A stretch of DNA of 64,000 bases, from NCBI GenBank assembly GCA_945885475.1, contig CAMCYR010000002.1:37633-101632 (forward strand), read 5' to 3'. A program made the translations under genes and the position numbers. Each line of letters opens with the position of its first letter. Within the stretch, counting starts at the first letter, position 1. Of the stretch, positions 12,801 to 32,362 are shown in pieces. This DNA comes from Chitinophaga pinensis. Its GTDB lineage: Bacteria > Bacteroidota > Bacteroidia > 2-12-FULL-35-15. Below the pieces are notes generated by a model. It saw only the letters and a program-made list of their open reading frames with translations. It had not been told where the DNA came from and made no database searches.

Positions 12801-15800
12801 TCACTGATTGTTTTTGTTTCTACGAATTGTGGTTCAACGTGGTCGAGGGTTTATTCTAAAGGAGGAACAGGATTAGCGACTGCAGCAGATAATGCAACTA
12901 CCGTTTTTGTTCCTACCGCAGCGCAATGGAGAACAGAAACAGTGAGCATGACTCCTTATGCCGGACAAGCAAATGTGATGGTGAAATTCCAAAATAAATC
13001 TGGATGGGGACAAATTCTTTATTTAGATAATATCAATATCACCGGTATAGGCGCCCCGGTTGCCGGTGTTACAATTGCATCAAATGATGCTGATAATGTG
13101 ATTTGTGCAGGAACATCTGTTACCTTCACGGCAACTCCTACAAACGGAGGAACAACTCCTACGTATCAATGGCAGGTTAATGGTGTGAATGTTGGTGGGG
13201 CAACCGCTTCAACTTTTACGACATCAACTATAACTACAGGTCAAATTGTAACATGTAACATGACTTCAAGTCTGGCGGGTGTTGTGGGAAGTCCGGCTCC
13301 TTCCGGCCCGATAACAATGACTGTTAATCCATTGCCAGCTACCCCAACACCAGGTAGTAATTCCCCGGTTTGTGTTGGTTCAACAATTAATTTAACGTCG
13401 TTTACTGTTGCTGGTGCAACCTACAGCTGGACTGGTCCTGGAGCTTTTTCTTCTTCATTGGAGGATCCAACCCGTCCTGGCGCTTCATTATCAATGGCAG
13501 GAACATACAGTTTAACTGTAACTGTCGGTGGATGTGCCAGCTTGGTGGGAACCACTGTCTTAGTTGTAAACGCATTGCCAACAACACCTACTGCTGGAAG
13601 CAATTCTCCTGTTTGTGTAGGAAGTATAATCAACTTAACCTCAAATACTGTTGCCGGTGCAACCTACAGTTGGATCGGACCAGGTGCATTTTCTTCCGCG
13701 CTAGAAGATCCAAGCCGTCCATCTGCTTCAACAGCAATGGCTGGAACATATAGTTTAACAGTAACCGTTGCTGGCTGTTCAAGTGCTGTTGCAACAACAG
13801 TGGTTGCAGTAAATACAGCACCAGCAACACCAACAGTAGGAAGCAGCACTCCAGATTGTGTTGGACAAACTATGAGTTTAACATCAAATACAATAGCAGG
13901 TGCAACGTATAGTTGGACAGGACCAGCAGCATTTAATTCTGCATTAGAAGATCCAACTCGTCCTTCAGCAACTCTTGCAATGGCAGGAACCTACAGCTTA
14001 ACAGTTACAGTAGCTGGTTGTACAAGTGCTATGGCAACAACAACGGTTGTTGTGAATGCATTGCCAGCAACTCCAGTTCCAAGTATAAACGCAAGTACAA
14101 CTCCTGCTGCAATTTGTGCAGGTGGTACAATTACTTTAACTACTCCTAATTTGGGTGCTGGTTTCACTTATAGCTGGACTGGCCCCAATAGTTATGCTGC
14201 CGCTGTAAGAAATCCTCCAGCTTTAACAAGTGTTACAACAGTAATGGGTGGAACGTATTCATTGACGGTTACCAATGGTGGTTGTTCAAGTTTAGCGGGA
14301 ACGGTTACTATTGTAGTGAATCCGACTCCTGCAGCACCAACTGCCGGAAGTAACTCTCCTGTATGTACAGGCTCTTCAATTTTATTGACTTCAAATACCG
14401 TTGCGGGTGCTACTTACGCTTGGACCGGTCCAAGTACTTTCACCTCAGCATTAGAAGACCCTTCTCGTCCTACTTCAACATTAGCAATGGCTGGAACATA
14501 CAGCGTAACCGTTACTGTGGCAGGATGTACAAGTCCTGCAGGAACAGTAGTTGTTGCAGTTAGTGGTAGTGTTGTTCCTACAAATGCAATTACAGCAAGT
14601 CCAAGTGGTGCTATTTGTGCTGGAACTTCCGTTACGCTCACGGCAAGTGCTGGTGGAGGTGGAACAACTCCAACATATCAATGGCAAGTAAATGGAAGTA
14701 ATGTTGGAACAGGCGGAACAACATACACTTCAAGTGCGTTAACAAGCGGACAAATTGTAACATGTATATTAACGTCAAGCTCTTCTTGTGCTGTTCCAAC
14801 TACAGCAACGTCCAATACAATTACAATGCTTGTAAATCCAGTTGTAGTGCCTTCGGTAAGTGTTGCGGCTAGTCCATCAGGAGCAATTTGTAATGGAACA
14901 TCAGTGGCGTTTACTGCAACCCCAACAAATGGCGGAACAACTCCAACATACCAATGGCAAGTAAATGGAAGCAACGTAGGAACAGGTGGAACAGCATATT
15001 CAAGTTCAGCCCTTGCAAGTGGAGATGTTGTAACTTGTACAATGACATCCAATGCAACATGTCCATCTACAGCTACCGCAACATCAAGCGGAATAACAAT
15101 AACAGTGAATCCAACGATAACTCCAGCGGTAAGTGTTGTTGCAAGTCCTGCTGGTGCAATTTGTTCAGGAACATCTGTATTGTTTACAGCAACCCCAACA
15201 AATGGTGGAACAACTCCAACGTATCAATGGCAATTGAATGGAAGTAACGTAGGAACAGGTGGAACAACGTATACAAGTGCCTCACTTGTAAATGCTGATA
15301 TTGTAACTTGTACTGTCACATCCAATGCAATATGTGCTAGTTCGCTTACAGGAACAAGTACAGGCATTACAATGGTTGTAAATCCAACCCCTGCAACGCC
15401 AACCATTTCTGTGTTAGGATCAATATTAACATCTAGTTCTCCAACAGGAAATCAATGGTATTTAAATGGAATATCTATAGCAGGTGCGACTAACCAAAAC
15501 TATACGTTTACAGCAAATGGAACGTATACCGTTATTGTAACAGTAGTTCCTTGTTCATCGGCCGAATCAGCTCCTGAAGTGATTACTACTACTGGAATAG
15601 AAGATGCAAGCAATCAATATGGATTAAACATTTATCCAAATCCAAACGATGGAAACTTCAACATCTTATTCAATGCAAATGTTGTTGCAGATTACACCAT
15701 TGAATTGACAAATGCTTTAGGTCAATTGATTCACAAAGAAGAGTTGAAAAACTATTCTGGTGCGTATAGAAAACCATTTAGTGTTGTTGATTACGGAAAA

Positions 15801-16477: not shown

Positions 16478-16528
16478 GCACTTCGACTTTAGTTTATGGT
16501 GAGCGGAGTCGGATCCACTCCGTGTGAC
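16478..16528. repeat. Degenerate copy of the CGAGCGGAGTCGAG (REP-like) family
   Basis: cacttcgac...GAGCGGAGTCGgatcCACTCCGtgtgac, an internal palindrome in the nuoA-nuoB gap. Confidence 0.45.
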
Positions 16529-16578
16529 AAAGAGAGTAGAGAGTTCGTGTATTAATAAAATTATTGTTAGAACAAATT

Positions 16579-16608
16579 CCCCCTTTGAAAAAGGGGGTTA
16601 GGGGGATT
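16579..16608 (+). repeat. GGGG-hairpin intergenic repeat (nuoA-nuoB gap)
   Basis: CCCCCTTTgaaAAAGGGGG tta GGGGGATT. Confidence 0.5.
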
Positions 16609-17199: not shown

Positions 17200-17283
17200 A
17201 AAATTCAAAAGAAAAAAGAGAAAAAATTCAAAAGCAGAAATTGAGATCAGAAAAGGAATCATATAATTAAAACAAAATCTTCC

Positions 17284-17322
17284 GCCCTCACCTTGAACAA
17301 GGAGAGGGGCCAGGGGTGAGGT
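17284..17322 (+). repeat. GGGG-hairpin intergenic repeat (nuoB-nuoC gap)
   Basis: CCCTCACCttgaacaaGGAGAGGGG cca GGGGTGAGG. It is related to the copy at 20231. Confidence 0.5.
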
Positions 17323-17834: not shown

Positions 17835-17856
17835 AAGAAGAAAGTTAAATGAGAAG

Positions 17857-18290
17857 AAAGTCAAAAGTCAAAAGAGCTTTTGATGGCTGAAGGGATTTAT
17901 GGAATACGAAAAGGATATTCGGGTTAGGACAAAGAAGTTTGCGGTTAGAATAATTAAGTTAGTACTTGAATTAAAAGTTCAGGGCGTTGAATATTCGTTA
18001 AGAGATCAAATATTGCGTAGCGGCACATCTGTGGGAGCAAATGTTAGAGAAGGGAAAGCGAGTAGTTCAAAAAAGGAGTTGATAAGGTATTATGAAATTG
18101 CTTTACGTTCAGCAAATGAAACAGATTTTTGGATGGAAACAATAGAAGAGGGATATGATTTAGATAGTAGTTTAATGAAAAACGATAAAAGTGAATTATT
18201 AGAAATTTCAAAAGTACTTGGAACAATAATTATTAACTTGAAGAAATAAGGTAAAGCCTTTTTGACTTTTGACTTAAAAATTTTTGACTT
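17857..18290. mobile_element. ~430-bp cassette bounded by 17-18 bp terminal inverted repeats, carrying a four-helix-bundle gene and inserted between nuoC and nuoD
   Basis: The left arm AAGTCAAAAGTCAAAAG (17859-17875) is the reverse complement of the right arm CTTTTTGACTTTTGACTT (18258-18275). An extra TTTTTGACTT lies at 18281-18290. Confidence 0.5.
17899..18249 (+). CDS. Four-helix-bundle protein of the 23S rRNA intervening-sequence (IVS) family, TIGR02436-like
   Basis: The protein is 116 aa. ...[21 protein letters not shown]...[28 protein letters not shown] matches the family pattern. Confidence 0.75.
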
Positions 18291-19518: not shown

Positions 19519-19639
19519 TGAATAAAAATAAATTTATTATTTTATTTGCTAGTGCATCTTGTTTTTCAAAAATAGGAAGCTTCGATTTGCCCAACCTAAA
19601 ATCGATCTCCAGGATTAATTTCTTGAAACAGAATATAAC

Positions 19640-20230: not shown

Positions 20231-20267
20231 TCCCCCCTCTCCAGCTGGAGAGGGGTTGGGGGTGAGG
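20231..20267 (+). repeat. GGGG-hairpin intergenic repeat (nuoE-nuoF gap)
   Basis: CCCCTCTCCagctGGAGAGGGG is a perfect palindrome, followed by ttg GGGGTGAGG. Confidence 0.5.
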
Positions 20268-21616: not shown

Positions 21617-21640
21617 TTGTAAATTGTAAAAGATAAAAAG

Positions 21641-22639: not shown

Positions 22640-23686
22640 ATGACATTAGATTTTCTGATTTATAAAATTATTTTAGTGTTGATTGTTTTTTCAATCACAT
22701 TATTGGTGGCGACATACAGCACCTATGCCGAAAGAAAAATTGCGGCTTTCCTTCAGGATCGTATCGGTCCGGACAGAGCTGGCCCATTCGGAATTCTTCA
22801 GCCATTAGCCGATGCTGTTAAAATGTTCATGAAGGAAGAAATTATTCCGAACGTTTCTAACAAGGCGCTCTTTGTTTTAGGTCCCGGAATTTGCATGCTT
22901 ACCGCTTGTATGACGGGTGTTATTATTCCATGGGGTAAAACAATTAACATAGGTGGAACCGATTATCCCTTGCAAATTGCAGATGTAAATATCGGGATCC
23001 TCTATTTGTTTGGCGTACTTTCATTAGGGGTCTATGGTATTATGATTGGAGGTTGGGCATCAAATAATAAATACTCATTGCTTGGTGCTATCCGCGCTTC
23101 TTCACAAATGATTAGCTACGAAGTTGCAATGGGAATCTCCATTATTGCTTTGGTAATGACCACGGGAACGTTGAGTACCGCTGAAATTGCAGCTCAACAG
23201 CATGGATGGCACTGGAACGTGTTGATCCAGCCTCTGGGTTGTCTGATCTTTATTATCTGCGCATTTGCTGAAACAAATCGCGCTCCTTTCGATTTACCTG
23301 AGTGTGAAACAGAACTTGTTGGCGGTTACCATACTGAATACAGTTCAATGAAACTTGGTTTGTTCTTGTTCTCTGAATATATCAACATGTTCATTTCCTC
23401 CGCTGTGATTGCTACTTTTTATTTTGGTGGGTACAACATGCCCTTGATCGGACGATGGGTGCATGATCCGAATGCGTTAGCGATTCTTGGAATTGTTTTC
23501 CTATTCATGAAAATTGTCGGATTTATATTTTTCTTCATGTGGGTGCGCTGGACATTACCCCGCTTCCGCTATGATCAACTGATGAATCTGGGATGGAAGA
23601 TTTTAATTCCTTTGTCAATATTGAACCTGGTATTAACAGGCGCATGGATGATGCGTCATGAGATCATGGTTTATTTTGTAAAATAG
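22640..23686 (+). CDS. nuoH: NADH-quinone oxidoreductase subunit H
   Basis: RKIAAFLQDRIGPDRAGPFG...ETNRAPFDLPE.E.ELVGGYH.EYSS. Confidence 0.95.
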   Translation: MTLDFLIYKIILVLIVFSITLLVATYSTYAERKIAAFLQDRIGPDRAGPFGILQPLADAVKMFMKEEIIPNVSNKALFVLGPGICMLTACMTGVIIPWGKTINIGGTDYPLQIADVNIGILYLFGVLSLGVYGIMIGGWASNNKYSLLGAIRASSQMISYEVAMGISIIALVMTTGTLSTAEIAAQQHGWHWNVLIQPLGCLIFIICAFAETNRAPFDLPECETELVGGYHTEYSSMKLGLFLFSEYINMFISSAVIATFYFGGYNMPLIGRWVHDPNALAILGIVFLFMKIVGFIFFFMWVRWTLPRFRYDQLMNLGWKILIPLSILNLVLTGAWMMRHEIMVYFVK

Positions 23687-24267
23687 TTGGCAGTTGGCAA
23701 TTAAAATAGTTGGCAAAGGAGAAGTAATAAAATAATAGTTCTTTTAAATATATGGGAAGTTTCAGAGATTTGAATGTTTACAAAAAAGCATTTGATTTAT
23801 CAATGCTAATTTTTAAAGAATCAAAAAAATTTCCAAATGAAGAGAAATTTGGTCTAACAAGTCAAATTAGAAGATCATCTCGTTCTGTTTGTTCGAATGT
23901 TGGTGAGGGTTATAGAAAAAGACTTTACCCTGCTCATTTTGTAAGCAAATGTTCAGATGCAGACATGGAAAACAGCGAGACTCAAGTATGGTTAGATTTT
24001 GCTTTGGCTTGTGAATATATAGAGAAAGAGCAGTTTGATGAATATTTAAAACGTTCAGAAGAAATAGGTAGGATGATCGGGCACATGATCGAGAATCCAG
24101 AAAAATATAAAGGAAAATAAATGCAGTTGGCAATTAAAAAAGTTGGCAATTCGCAAAAATAAAATTTAAGAAACAGATTAAGTATAAACAGGTTGACATT
24201 AGAAGAGTTTGCTTACAAAATGACTGAAATCATTTTCCAACTTTTTTAATTGCCAACTGCCAACTGA
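23685..24267. mobile_element. ~580-bp cassette carrying a second four-helix-bundle gene. It is flanked by direct repeats and ends in a 144-bp element with 28-bp terminal inverted repeats.
   Basis: The direct repeat is AGTTGGCAGTTGGCAATTAAAAtAGTTGGCAA (23685-23716), matching CAGTTGGCAATTAAAAAAGTTGGCAA (24124-24150). Its reverse complement CCAACTTTTTTAATTGCCAACTGCCAACTG lies at 24238-24267, right against the nuoI start. Confidence 0.5.
23752..24120 (+). CDS. Four-helix-bundle protein of the 23S rRNA IVS family (TIGR02436-like), second copy
   Basis: ...NVYKKAFDLSMLIF...KFPNEEKFGLTSQIRRSSRSVCSNVGEGYRKR...ENSETQVWLDFALACEYI is a canonical pattern. The protein has diverged from the copy at 17899. 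Confidence 0.8.
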   Translation: MGSFRDLNVYKKAFDLSMLIFKESKKFPNEEKFGLTSQIRRSSRSVCSNVGEGYRKRLYPAHFVSKCSDADMENSETQVWLDFALACEYIEKEQFDEYLKRSEEIGRMIGHMIENPEKYKGK

Positions 24268-24271
24268 TAAA

Positions 24272-24883
24272 ATGATGTTAACAAATAGATCGCAAGTTGT
24301 TGTTAAAAAGGAAATGACATTCATTGAACGGATGTATCTGCCGGCTATTTTTAGCGGTATGCTCATTACCTTTAAACACCTTTTCAAAAAATCGGCAACG
24401 ATTAAGTATCCGGAACAAACACGTGAGTTTAGTAAAATTTACCGCGGACAACATGTTTTAAAACGTGATGAAAAAGGTGCCGAACGTTGCACGGCGTGCG
24501 GATTATGCGCTGTTGCCTGTCCAGCAGAAGCTATCACGATGATTGCGGCAGAAAGAAAGCCTGGTGAAGAAGCTTTATACAGAGAAGAAAAATATGCTGC
24601 AACATATGAAATCAATATGCTGCGTTGCATCTTTTGTGGCGACTGTGAAGAAGCTTGTCCGAAAGAAGCGATTTTCTTAACCGATAGAAAAGTAGACAGC
24701 TTCTATACACGTAAAGAATTTATTTATGGAAAAAGTATTTTGGTGGAAGGACTTGAAAGCGACAAGCGTGTTGATGTAAGTGTCCGCGAAACAAAAGCTG
24801 TGGAAGAATTTAAAAAACACAAAGAGTTTGCTCACAACGAAACATACGATAAAAATAAAAAGAAAACAGTTGCTGGACACTAG
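24272..24883 (+). CDS. nuoI: NADH-quinone oxidoreductase subunit I (two 4Fe-4S clusters)
   Basis: CTACGLCAVACP and CIFCGDCEEACP. Confidence 0.95.
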   Translation: MMLTNRSQVVVKKEMTFIERMYLPAIFSGMLITFKHLFKKSATIKYPEQTREFSKIYRGQHVLKRDEKGAERCTACGLCAVACPAEAITMIAAERKPGEEALYREEKYAATYEINMLRCIFCGDCEEACPKEAIFLTDRKVDSFYTRKEFIYGKSILVEGLESDKRVDVSVRETKAVEEFKKHKEFAHNETYDKNKKKTVAGH

Positions 24884-25858: not shown

Positions 25859-27757
25859 ATGATAAAATTAGTTTGGTTAGTTCCGCTTCTCCCGCTTATA
25901 GGATTTATAATCATCGGATTATTCGGAAAAAAATTATCGAAGGGAATCGTTGGGATAATTGGCAGCGGTGCTGTATTAGGTGCCTTTGCAATTGCTCTTG
26001 GAATATTTTTTGAATTGAAAGGGAGTGTCCAAAAAGAACACACCATCGATTTGTTCAATTGGATCTCTGCCGGTAAGTTGTCTATTCCATTCTCCTTTCT
26101 GATTGACCCTCTGTCTTCCTTATTCTTATTGATTATCACTGGGATCGGATTTTTGATCCATGTATACTCTACCGGTTATATGAGCCATGACGAAGGCTTT
26201 TTCCGTTTCTTCGCATACTTGAATCTTTTCATCTTCTTCATGTTGTTGTTGGTATTGGGCTCTAATTACCTGATCATGTTTGTTGGTTGGGAAGGCGTTG
26301 GATTGTGCTCTTATCTATTGATTGGCTTCTGGTTTAAAAATACAGCGTATAATAATGCTGCAAAAAAAGCATTCATCATGAACCGTGTAGGTGACTTAGG
26401 TTTCCTGTTAGGAATTATACTGATTTTTGTAACCTTTGGAAGCATTGGATATCACGATGTTTTTGAACAAGCAAAAAACATGGCTTCCGGAAATGCAACC
26501 TTAACAGCTATTGCTTTATTGTTGTTTGTTGGTGCAATGGGAAAAAGTGCCCAGCTTCCTTTATACACGTGGTTGCCCGATGCGATGGCTGGACCAACTC
26601 CTGTATCAGCTTTAATTCACGCTGCTACCATGGTAACAGCCGGTATCTATATGATTGCTCGCTCAAATATTTTATACACACTTTCTCCGGATGCAATGAA
26701 TGTTGTTGCGATCATTGGAGTGTGTACAGCCTTGTTTGCTGCAACAATCGGACTGGCACAAAACGATATTAAAAAAGTATTGGCGTATTCGACCGTTTCA
26801 CAATTAGGATATATGTTCCTTGCTCTTGGTGTTGGTGCTTATACCGGAGCTGTTTTCCATGTGATGACGCACGCGTTCTTCAAAGCATTATTATTCCTTG
26901 GTGCAGGAAGTGTTATCCATGCGATGAGTGGTGAACAGGACATTCGTAAAATGGGAGGATTGAAAAAATACATCTCTACAACACACATTACATTTTTATT
27001 AGGAACACTTGCTATTGCTGGTTGTTTCCCTTTCTCAGGATTCTTTTCCAAAGACGAAATTCTTGCTCATGCATGGGAACATAATAAGCTGCTTTGGTTC
27101 TTGGGAATTTTAGGTGCAGCGATGACGACCTTCTATATGTTCCGTTTATATTTTCTTACTTTCCACGGTAAATTCAGAGGAACGCATGAACAAGAGCACC
27201 ACCTGCACGAGTCGCCAAAGTCAATGACGATTCCCTTGATCGTTTTAGCGATACTTTCAGTCGTAGGTGGTTTGATCGGTATTCCGGAAGCATTGCATGG
27301 CACGCATTATTTAGAGGAATTCTTAAGCCCTGTATTTGAATCTTCTTCTTTCCGTCTGGTTCACCATTTATCGCATGAAACAGAATATTTATTGATGGGT
27401 ATGGCAACATTAGTAATGATTGTTGCGATCTATTTCGCACACTCAATCTATGTTAAGAAAAACACAGTACCTGCTGCAGAAGGTGAAGAATTACAACCAC
27501 TTCATAAATTGGTTTACAATAAGTATTGGATTGATGAATTGTATGAAAGCCTGATTACGAAACCTCTGAATTTAATTTCAGAAGCATTCTACAAGCTGGT
27601 AGATAATCAAATTGTTGATGGAATTGTAAATGGTGTAGGTTCTCTTATAACATGGCTAAGTAGCGTTCTCCGCCTTGCTCAAACAGGTAACATCGGATTT
27701 TATGTGTTTGTAATGGTCATTAGTATTGTTTTGATTTTGTTTACGCAACTGTTTTAG
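25859..27757 (+). CDS. nuoL: NADH-quinone oxidoreductase subunit L
   Basis: A 632-aa antiporter-like subunit carrying the conserved NuoL motif WLPDAMAGPTPVSALIHAATMVTAG. Confidence 0.95.
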   Translation: MIKLVWLVPLLPLIGFIIIGLFGKKLSKGIVGIIGSGAVLGAFAIALGIFFELKGSVQKEHTIDLFNWISAGKLSIPFSFLIDPLSSLFLLIITGIGFLIHVYSTGYMSHDEGFFRFFAYLNLFIFFMLLLVLGSNYLIMFVGWEGVGLCSYLLIGFWFKNTAYNNAAKKAFIMNRVGDLGFLLGIILIFVTFGSIGYHDVFEQAKNMASGNATLTAIALLLFVGAMGKSAQLPLYTWLPDAMAGPTPVSALIHAATMVTAGIYMIARSNILYTLSPDAMNVVAIIGVCTALFAATIGLAQNDIKKVLAYSTVSQLGYMFLALGVGAYTGAVFHVMTHAFFKALLFLGAGSVIHAMSGEQDIRKMGGLKKYISTTHITFLLGTLAIAGCFPFSGFFSKDEILAHAWEHNKLLWFLGILGAAMTTFYMFRLYFLTFHGKFRGTHEQEHHLHESPKSMTIPLIVLAILSVVGGLIGIPEALHGTHYLEEFLSPVFESSSFRLVHHLSHETEYLLMGMATLVMIVAIYFAHSIYVKKNTVPAAEGEELQPLHKLVYNKYWIDELYESLITKPLNLISEAFYKLVDNQIVDGIVNGVGSLITWLSSVLRLAQTGNIGFYVFVMVISIVLILFTQLF

Positions 27758-27781
27758 AATTTAGAATTTATTTATAAAGAT

Positions 27782-29288: not shown

Positions 29289-29319
29289 TTATCTGTGTAA
29301 ATCTGTGAAATCTGTGGTG
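29289..29319. repeat. Triple ATCTGTG motif, second copy (nuoM-nuoN gap)
   Basis: See 8103-8132. Confidence 0.4.
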
Positions 29320-32196: not shown

Positions 32197-32256
32197 TTTT
32201 AGTAAAATAATTTCATACAAAAGTCGAAACATTAATTTGACGTCACCCTGAGCCCT

Positions 32257-32362
32257 GTCAGTTCGAGCGGAGTCGATTGTCAGTTCGAGCGGAGTCGAGA
32301 ACAAGATTAATAATAGTAAAGAAAAATGCTTGTCGCCAGTCACTTCGAGCGGAGTCGAGAAG
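32257..32362. repeat. Three tandem units of the CGAGCGGAGTCGAG (REP-like) family
   Basis: tGTCAGTTCGAGCGGAGTCGAttg, GTCAGTTCGAGCGGAGTCGAGAAc and GTCACTTCGAGCGGAGTCGAGAAg. Confidence 0.6.

Follow-up and report, generated by a model that had tools for sequence, protein, structure and literature searches.

Small open reading frames (ORFs) for S23p proteins were described in the early 1990s from intervening sequences (IVSs) of rRNA genes, and the heptamers of STRR (short tandemly repeated repetitive) sequences were described from cyanobacteria in 1990. Here we analyse a stretch of 64,000 nucleotides from Chitinophaga pinensis (contig CAMCYR010000002.1), called the window below, in which an S23p gene enclosed by inverted arrays of a 7-nt word lies in the spacer between nuoH and nuoI of the complex I (nuo) operon. 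In the IVS of the Coxiella 23S rRNA, terminal inverted repeats, paired in a stem of 28 bp, enclose the S23p ORF; tandem heptamers of GACAGAT are present at the 5' end and RNase III cuts within the stem, and IVSs have long been proposed to be mobile elements (PMC4990558). STRR sequences are 7-bp repeats which form hairpins in operon spacers such as hupS-hupL, where an effect on transcript stability or translational coupling has been suggested (PMC2670836). According to a paper that cites Vioque (1997), STRR are found in a structural RNA as well, namely that of RNase P.

Comparison of the nuoH/nuoI locus with the 23S rRNA IVSs of Coxiella burnetii, Leptospira, Xanthomonas and Brucella reveals the same protein family (PF05635), a similar total size of ~430–580 nt, terminal inverted repeats around the ORF (36 nt here and a 28-bp stem in Coxiella) and tandem heptamers at the 5' side (AGTTGGC twice plus one further copy here and GACAGAT three times in Coxiella). 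Transcription depends on the host in the Coxiella IVS (PMC4990558) and likely does so here as well. However, the rRNA IVSs are hosted by helix 25 or 45 of 23S rRNA, whereas the present cassette is located in the spacer of an mRNA operon; insertion into H25 or H45, a mark of an IVS, is thus not seen, and no rRNA is present in the 64-kb window, where the Rfam matches are two tRNAs only. Moreover, the protein encoded here is under strong purifying selection, in contrast to the ORF of Coxiella, which is in decay and probably not translated, and excision by RNase III has been demonstrated for the rRNA IVSs while for the nuoH/nuoI cassette we infer it.

With STRR, the cassette shares tandem 7-bp words, the capacity to form hairpins and an intergenic location. 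However, STRR have been described as repeats, with no mention of S23p genes, from heterocystous cyanobacteria and not from Bacteroidota. Their words are of the GCAGGGG type, as against AGTTGGC here, and the classic consensus words are not those of this cassette. Avd, the accessory protein of diversity-generating retroelements (DGRs), has a homologous four-helix-bundle fold, and sub-threshold matches to the Avd profiles PF22296 and NF033474 are obtained. Membership in a DGR would further involve an Avd equivalog score, an adjacent reverse transcriptase and template and variable repeats, and the locus does not show this combination; no reverse-transcriptase gene or such repeats adjoin the cassette, for which the immediate neighbours nuoH and nuoI only were looked at and no wider search was made. 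Repetitive extragenic palindromic (REP) hairpins, bacterial interspersed mosaic elements (BIMEs) and miniature inverted-repeat transposable elements (MITEs) are likewise small inverted-repeat units of operon spacers, and they too may affect the stability of mRNA segments. The cassette differs from them in its conserved ORF and its lineage-specific tandem-word arms, and no high-copy identical family of it was found in the same-species metagenome-assembled genome (MAG) sampled. We found no paper on S23p cassettes in protein-coding operons or on a link between S23p and STRR; coverage of the literature was incomplete, so novelty is not proven.

The nuoH/nuoI cassette

We read the region 23685–24265, with confidence slightly better than even, as one complete IVS-type S23p cassette, in which inverted AGTTGGC arrays surround a PF05635 gene, the whole is co-transcribed with the nuo genes and the stem formed by the arms is cut by RNase III. 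The features of the locus are as follows, with loci other than the window designated by L numbers.

22640..23686, + strand: nuoH, host gene 5' of the cassette (PF00146, E = 4.7e-121)
23671..23679, + strand: outer stem extension in the 3' end of nuoH, pairing with 24267–24275 including the nuoI ATG (minimum free energy (MFE) and duplex folds)
23685..23720, + strand: 5' arm (copy A), AGTTGGC AGTTGGC AATTAAAA(T/A)AGTTGGCAA AGGA, a tandem heptamer plus a third word copy
23736..23751, + strand: pre-start motif T(A/T)GTTCTTTTAAATAT, compared in the window, L024, L080, L081 and L084
23752..24120, + strand: gene for the S23p four-helix-bundle protein, 122 aa, Avd-like (PF05635, TIGR02436)
24123..24149, + strand: internal direct arm copy (copy B), beginning 3 nt past the S23p stop codon
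24150..24229, no strand: species-specific spacer between B and C, with the inverted repeat I5 inside
24230..24265, − strand: 3' arm (copy C), reverse complement of A, ~5 nt short of the nuoI ATG
24272..24883, + strand: nuoI, host gene 3' of the cassette (4Fe-4S domain matches; nuoI in all related loci)

The cassette occupies the nuoH–nuoI spacer with its gene in the sense orientation. The 122-aa protein matches PF05635 over residues 5–110 of 122 (E = 6e-33, 113.7 bits, cutoff 33.8) and TIGR02436 at E = 7.6e-30 (103.3 bits, cutoff 24), which bears out the 122-aa IVS-family gene placed between nuoH and nuoI by an earlier note on this DNA. Scores against bAvd (PF22296, 34.5) and the Avd equivalog (NF033474, 33.1) stay under the respective cutoffs of 40 and 80. 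Among the solved oligomeric four-helix-bundle structures, 2RLD (3.7e-10) and 2GSC (8.7e-09), each deposited with five chains, match the protein by sequence. Orthologous cassettes in other species have conserved the pre-start motif 5' of their ATG, and this makes it a likely translation-initiation region.

Both arms are built from the tandem heptamer AGTTGGC (2.1 copies at period 7 in Tandem Repeats Finder). The first word of the 5' arm shares bases with the TAG stop codon of nuoH (23684–23686) and the final repeat base is 24266, with the nuoI ATG at 24272. The sequence AGTTGGCAATTAAAA has three exact copies in the 64 kb, all at this locus (23692 and 24125 on the + strand, 24244 on the − strand), in agreement with the direct and reverse-complement repeats of the earlier note. 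When up to two mismatches are allowed, five matches are present against 0.83 expected, a number reached in 0 of 100 shuffles. The direct pair 23690–23716 and 24123–24149 is 27 nt long with 96% identity. A point absent from the earlier note is that A and C (23685–23720 and 24230–24265) form an inverted repeat of 36 nt, 92% complementary, with the whole gene inside. At position 23707 the window has T and every other strain has A, with the result that in those strains copy A matches B and C there. The 6-nt TAAAAT touches both arms in the window, although this match is AT-rich and weak.

The earlier note had treated 24124–24267 as an element of 144 bp with terminal inverted repeats. This segment corresponds to the inverted pair 24123–24149 and 24234–24260 (27 nt, 96%) with its 84-nt loop. 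However, the 84-nt core has no second locus in any of the DNA compared, and the unit was for this reason rejected as a dispersed MITE. A repeat like copy B is present in the orthologue L024, where the B–loop–C part is a shorter version of that in the window, and absent from L080, L081 and L084. The segment is therefore not supported as a unit of its own; it is best read as the 3' arm of the cassette together with a further, internal arm copy. The spacer 24150–24229 is 100% conserved in the same-species strains and absent elsewhere, being missing also from L024. Within it, 24208–24223 is a 16-nt perfect reverse complement of gene codons 23934–23949 (HFVSK) and may be the leftover of an inverted gene fragment.

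The exact arm 21-mer is present at this locus only in the window and in one contig only of the same-species MAG, which may be incomplete. Together with the conservation of the locus across species (see below), this goes against a recent landing of this copy; uniqueness of the repeats to the locus is part of the condition that the earlier note had set against its own reading. A scan of a genome collection with the 21-mer led to word arrays not adjoining S23p genes in L012–L014 and L016; matches in L015 and L017 lie inside coding sequence and were dismissed as chance.

RNA folding and proposed processing

In the MFE structure of the RNA of the full cassette (23670–24285), A is paired with C (z = −6.97). 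The A:C duplex has an energy of −51.2 kcal/mol in the window and −61.2 kcal/mol in L001, compared with −38.1 and −44.3 kcal/mol for B:C. The RNA ensemble also prefers A:C over B:C, with copy C paired with A at 28.9 of 32 positions. In the L001-type strains, 24236 T>G brings back a C-G pair and 24240 A>G yields a U·G pair. For the local hairpin of B and C, the predicted folding energy is −43.1 kcal/mol (z = −6.4); the earlier note had asked whether the 144-bp segment folds in this way.

No terminator was found at the cassette, and promoter-like sites in a sigma-70-type scan were at the level of shuffled sequence. A sigma-54 promoter read from GTTGGCA...TTGGCA was rejected by inspection, the GG-N10-GC spacing being unfit, and a known RNA family was rejected because Rfam gave the two tRNAs only across the window. 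Since neither a promoter nor a terminator could be recognised in the cassette itself, it is most likely transcribed within the nuo polycistron. In the nuo RNA, arms A and C would pair into a double-stranded stem of ~36–47 bp, a predicted substrate of RNase III if the cassette behaves like the 23S rRNA IVSs of Coxiella, Leptospira and Salmonella. Such cleavage would free the S23p RNA and separate the nuoA–H segment from the nuoI–N segment. Copy B could act as an alternative local hairpin directly 3' of the S23p stop codon.

Conservation and history of the cassette

Same-species loci were collected as metagenome and MAG contigs by exact-protein match; they include one 100% identical contig of 246 kb as well as L011, a MAG of a 'Bacteroidia bacterium' from Lake Mendota. 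The nuo operons of these contigs are 95–100% identical to that of the window and their spacers differ, and the nuoH/nuoI cassette (IVS2 below) is found in every strain seen. Its closest relatives (L024, L080, L081 and L084; 85–89% aa identity) are all located at nuoH/nuoI in other species, whose NuoH is 83–87% identical to that of the window. The ratio of nonsynonymous to synonymous substitution (dN/dS) of the S23p gene against these orthologues is 0.04–0.07 at dS of ~1.0–2.2, with the synonymous sites of L080 too saturated for an estimate, and in conservation the protein is roughly on a par with NuoH and ahead of NuoI. The presence of orthologues at the same site together with this dN/dS argues that the nuoH/nuoI cassette is ancient, vertically inherited and functional, and not a fresh insertion.

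A 1-nt deletion in the A7 run at 23817–23823 frameshifts the S23p gene in L020 and L022, two independent assemblies; the run may be prone to slippage, or the deletion may be an artefact of homopolymer sequencing. Between the window and the L001-type strains, identity is 99.3% in the cassette compared with 93.7% in nuoH and 95.4% in nuoI. This low-divergence tract is only suggestive of recent exchange, and little weight is given to it because the loci had been selected for an identical protein.

More distant IVS2 relatives (61–77% aa identity) with GTTGGCA-type words are present at loci other than nuo, namely between dut and a nucleotidyltransferase gene, 5' of Nif3-like and rlmB-like genes and of ispG, close to dxr, and with an alpha-2-macroglobulin-like gene on one side and pbpC on the other; these neighbours were named by reading N-terminal translations. 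The occurrence of these relatives with their words at unrelated sites indicates that a gene and its words travel together. Among operon spacers it is the family as a whole that moves, while the nuoH/nuoI copy is a long-term resident; what has been shown is mobility of the family and not of this copy.

Architecture of other S23p loci

A metagenome scan returned 56 loci with relatives of 31–89% identity. In nearly all AT-rich, Bacteroidota-like loci among them, inverted arms of tandem 7–8-nt words surround the ORF, and the word depends on the lineage. Words of the GTTGGCA family are found in most relatives of at least 67% identity, with the one-base variants AGTCGGC and AGTCTGC in L027 and L030, while other lineages have GGGAGAT, GGATGAT, AAGGATTC, GAGTAGC, TATGAAAA, TTGTTAAA and others. 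The score of matched flanks has a median of 31 against 16 for a cross-paired control (Mann-Whitney p = 6e-15), and 26 of the 36 metagenome relatives exceed the 95th percentile of that control. In 42 of 45 cases the neighbouring genes run in the same direction as the S23p gene. The sense strand of the 5' arms is rich in purines and poor in C (A 352, G 272, T 269, C 98).

In a tblastn search against plasmids, the S23p family was found mostly in Nostocales. Inverted heptamer arrays of the GCAGGGG type bracket the gene in four of the six Nostocales/Oscillatoriales plasmid loci inspected, and an Oscillatoria plasmid locus has direct arrays on both sides of the gene. In plasmid pANA02 of Anabaena sp. 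90 (L090, 1126–1901), the gene is flanked by cas6 and cas4 in a type I-D operon and has a long CAGGTGA/CAGGGAA array on its upstream side only. A published legend reports '23S rRNA IVP' as statistically associated with CRISPR adaptation modules. Insertion of a cassette into a cas operon might explain this association, and it is a possible reason why four-helix-bundle genes score as linked to other systems of this kind.

Long spacer arrays without an ORF, made of CAGTTGGCAA(WWAAAA), AGTAGGC, AGTGCTG and similar words, were also observed in other Bacteroidota/Chlorobi-like MAGs (L013, 648–883; L014, 136–300; L016, 5780–7760). They are located 3' of infC and of feoB as well as between toxin-antitoxin modules of the AbrB/PIN type, and none of them adjoins an S23p gene.

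The sister cassette in nuoC/nuoD

A second S23p cassette (IVS1) is present in the same operon.

17854..18290, + strand: sister cassette in the nuoC/nuoD spacer, same design with another word
17854–17874: sister 5' arm AAGAAAGTCAAAAGTCAAAAG, with AAAGTCA in 2.6 copies at 17857–17874, inverted at 18258–18275
17899–18249, + strand: sister gene for a 116-aa PF05635 protein (profile match)
18258–18275: sister 3' arm CTTTTTGACTTTTGACTT, with an extra TTTTTGACTT at 18281–18290
17200..17217, + strand: solo word array AAAATTCAAAAGAAAAAA in the nuoB/nuoC spacer, 18 nt identical to the 5' arm of the L004 nuoF/nuoG cassette

The arm duplex of the sister cassette has an energy of −27 kcal/mol. The cassette is absent from L001, L002 and L004, where a 10-nt spacer stands in place of 466 nt; no target duplication is seen between these filled and empty alleles, and the whole spacer is replaced. 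L004, L008 and L009 have a frameshifted pseudogene of the IVS1 lineage in the nuoF/nuoG spacer, with arms AAAGTCAAAATTCAAAAG and CTTTTGAATTTTGACTTT, which differ from those of the window cassette by G>T in one arm and a matching C>A in the other. Pairs of arms co-vary by lineage, being AAAGTCAAAAGTC and GACTTTTGACTTT in the window, AAAGTCAAAATTC and GAATTTTGACTTT in L004, and CACAAGTCACAAG and CTTGTGA in L100.

The IVS1 lineage is small (206 hits). All seven homologues examined (61–84% aa identity) lie in nuo operons, at nuoC/nuoD or nuoF/nuoG, and six of them have words of the AGTCAAA/ATTCAAA type, while L100 (66%) has the one-base variant AGTCACA in both arms. The dN/dS of the lineage is 0.10–0.22. 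Nucleotide identities do not sort cleanly by site, a pattern that hints at movement or conversion of IVS1 within the nuo operon. Against L091, the proportion of synonymous differences (pS) is 0.55 for IVS1 and 0.67–0.79 for NuoB, NuoC and NuoD; this lower divergence was not relied upon, as it is near saturation and covers 116 codons. The nuoC/nuoD cassette of L091 itself (1837–2446) has three copies of the 5' arm, an ORF-less hairpin before the gene and two copies of the 3' arm, and these arms appear to multiply locally. A supposed third S23p remnant in the window at 13083–13208 (− strand) is spurious because the + strand is coding there.

The architecture of the two cassettes is the same and places them in one class, of which they are independent members. 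The view of the earlier note that their repeats are unrelated stands for the word itself and fails for the architecture. Separate histories for the two, as it had claimed, are evident from the absence of cassette 1 in L001, L002 and L004 and the presence of cassette 2 in all strains and in four other species, although conservation of the latter at the same site across species speaks against a recent landing there. Its suggestion that the nuo operon is a favoured home agrees with the occupation of the nuoC/D, nuoF/G and nuoH/I spacers by S23p cassettes in this species complex, and with the location of the seven cassette 1 homologues.

Alternative explanations and wider meaning

Several observations weigh against a reading in which the arms act simply as a duplex for RNase III. 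Selection on sense-RNA stems should give an excess of G·U pairs, whereas the mismatches in 28 stems comprise 25 of the G·U type and 29 of the A·C type, with no bias. In the orthologue L084, the words of the 3' arm are all GTTTGCA while those of the 5' arm are GTTGGCR/GTTGGTA, and the complementarity of the arms is only ~73%, as estimated from the sequences. The AGTTGGC-type word is kept across species with saturated synonymous sites, tandem words are unnecessary for a plain duplex, which suggests sequence-specific recognition, and word arrays exist in L013, L014 and L016 without any S23p gene. It must also be assumed that cleavage within an essential operon is harmless. The lack of a G·U excess, the conservation of the words and the needless tandem structure keep word-specific recognition live, most simply by the oligomer of the cassette itself. 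It is therefore possible, and we propose this tentatively, that the heptamers are putative binding sites (iterons) on RNA or DNA for the ring-shaped S23p oligomer, with one word per subunit, much like the TRAP ring with its repeated triplets. On this view the inverted arrays would be there for autoregulation, for formation of a ribonucleoprotein or for synapsis of the ends in movement, with the duplex in second place. Processing by RNase III agrees with this model, and both could coexist. The word follows the protein lineage within one genome (AGTCAAA with IVS1, AGTTGGC with IVS2) and across species, where the IVS1 homologues, except for L100, keep their AGTCAAA/ATTCAAA-type words and all IVS2 orthologues retain GTTGGCA-type words, despite dS > 1. 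However, plain co-inheritance of a gene and its flanks would give the same correlation. Homogenisation of the L084 words within one arm, unmatched to the other, the lack of a G·U bias in the stems and the consistently purine-rich, C-poor sense strand of the 5' arm are also in line with recognition of single words, and the entries of the solved homologues (2RLD and 2GSC) have five chains each. Avd, a relative of S23p, reportedly binds nucleic acid and reverse transcriptase, as described by Alayyoubi and co-workers in 2013. On the other hand, arrays are found without S23p genes, and sites 7 nt apart would face different sides of duplex DNA.

A role tied to nuo itself appears quite unlikely. The hairpins would tune stability or translation of nuoA–H relative to nuoI–N, as REP hairpins do for segments of E. 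coli operons, and S23p would be a domesticated accessory of nuo. Long retention at nuoH/nuoI with a dN/dS of 0.04–0.07, restriction of the IVS1 lineage to nuo operons (7/7) and an extended stem that covers the nuoI ATG are consistent with such a role, and the STRR hairpins of hupS-hupL have been suggested to act on transcript stability or translational coupling (PMC2670836). However, relatives with the same word are found in many unrelated operons, the sister cassette is dispensable, as some strains lack it or have it as a pseudogene, the nuoH/nuoI gene has a frameshift in L020 and L022, and the family is best known from rRNA genes. We consider it very unlikely that the cassette is a non-autonomous MITE or foldback transposon, whose terminal inverted repeats are read by a transposase from elsewhere with S23p as a passenger. 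Such an element would account for the long terminal inverted repeats around the unit, for family members at unrelated loci, for the presence or absence of the sister cassette among strains and its two alternative nuo spacers, and for the 6-nt TAAAAT at both arms, if this AT-rich and weak match is given weight. However, arm sequences differ between cassettes of one genome, so one transposase could not recognise both, which makes a trans-acting transposase unlikely. Between filled and empty alleles of the sister cassette the entire spacer is exchanged, with no clean target duplication, the exact arm 21-mer is confined to one contig of the same-species MAG, and an ORF that is under strong purifying selection and always in the sense orientation is not passenger-like.

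Of greater interest is the class itself, S23p genes with lineage-specific inverted heptamer arrays, which extends over rRNA, operon spacers and plasmids of several phyla and has some lineages that keep to the complex I operon. Its three-part design is seen in protein-coding operons of Bacteroidota, in Nostocales plasmids and, with the upstream array only, in one type I-D cas operon. The S23p genes of rRNA IVSs and the STRR heptamers, two old unexplained observations, may be one phenomenon. In its furthest form, which we regard as unlikely, this idea would make the 23S rRNA IVSs, the STRR hairpins and the Bacteroidota cassettes a single cross-phylum class in which the S23p ring reads its own words. 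If so, recognition of the words, one by each subunit, would lie behind the processing of host transcripts, behind a site-faithful spread of cassettes or behind both, and IVS1 and IVS2 would be long-term residents of the complex I operon that segment the nuo mRNA. Small S23p genes can match complex I subunits in conservation and stay in one operon across species, unlike a decaying selfish ORF. RNase III cleavage and word-specific binding by S23p thereby become testable hypotheses.

Other features of the nuo spacers and the window

The nuoF/nuoG spacer is hypervariable. It is empty in the window (21617–21640, AATTGTA in 2.3 copies), contains the S23p pseudogene in L004 (3413–3889) and a 546-aa gene without a Pfam match in L020 (305–1945) and L021. 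In related species (region of L080, L081, L084 and L101), an intact S23p gene is present at nuoF/nuoG, with HepT-like or TonB_C just 5' of nuoG, and related genomes have PDDEXK_3 at nuoE/nuoF and a ParE toxin at nuoG/nuoH. The nuoD/nuoE insert of L001 and L002 was rejected as a cassette, as it is an ordinary 193-aa lipoprotein-like gene. This gene is intact in L001 (1312–1953) and L002, and the nuoD/nuoE spacer of the window (19519–19639) is a deleted remnant of such a gene of 193–213 aa, which has no Pfam match.

Spacers nuoA/B, nuoB/C and nuoE/F (16579–16606, 17282–17315 and 20232–20267) each contain a G+C-rich hairpin followed by a G-run, for example CCCCCCTCTCCAGCTGGAGAGGGG TTGGGGGTGAGG, which looks like a second small repeat family. 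Tandem words without an inverted partner are present in nuoL/nuoM (27753–27770, TTTAGAA in 2.6 copies) and nuoM/nuoN (29291–29316, ATCTGTGTAA in 2.7 copies). A perfect 22-nt tandem duplication of TGTCAGTTCGAGCGGAGTCGAT (two copies; 32256–32298) has the core GAGCGGAGTCG in common with a hairpin-like stretch of the nuoA/nuoB spacer (16494–16530). A 243-nt tandem repeat (13382–14049; 2.7 copies, 72% matches) is located in a large coding region, in which domains of the 'TATPTNGGTTPTYQWQVNG' type are repeated.

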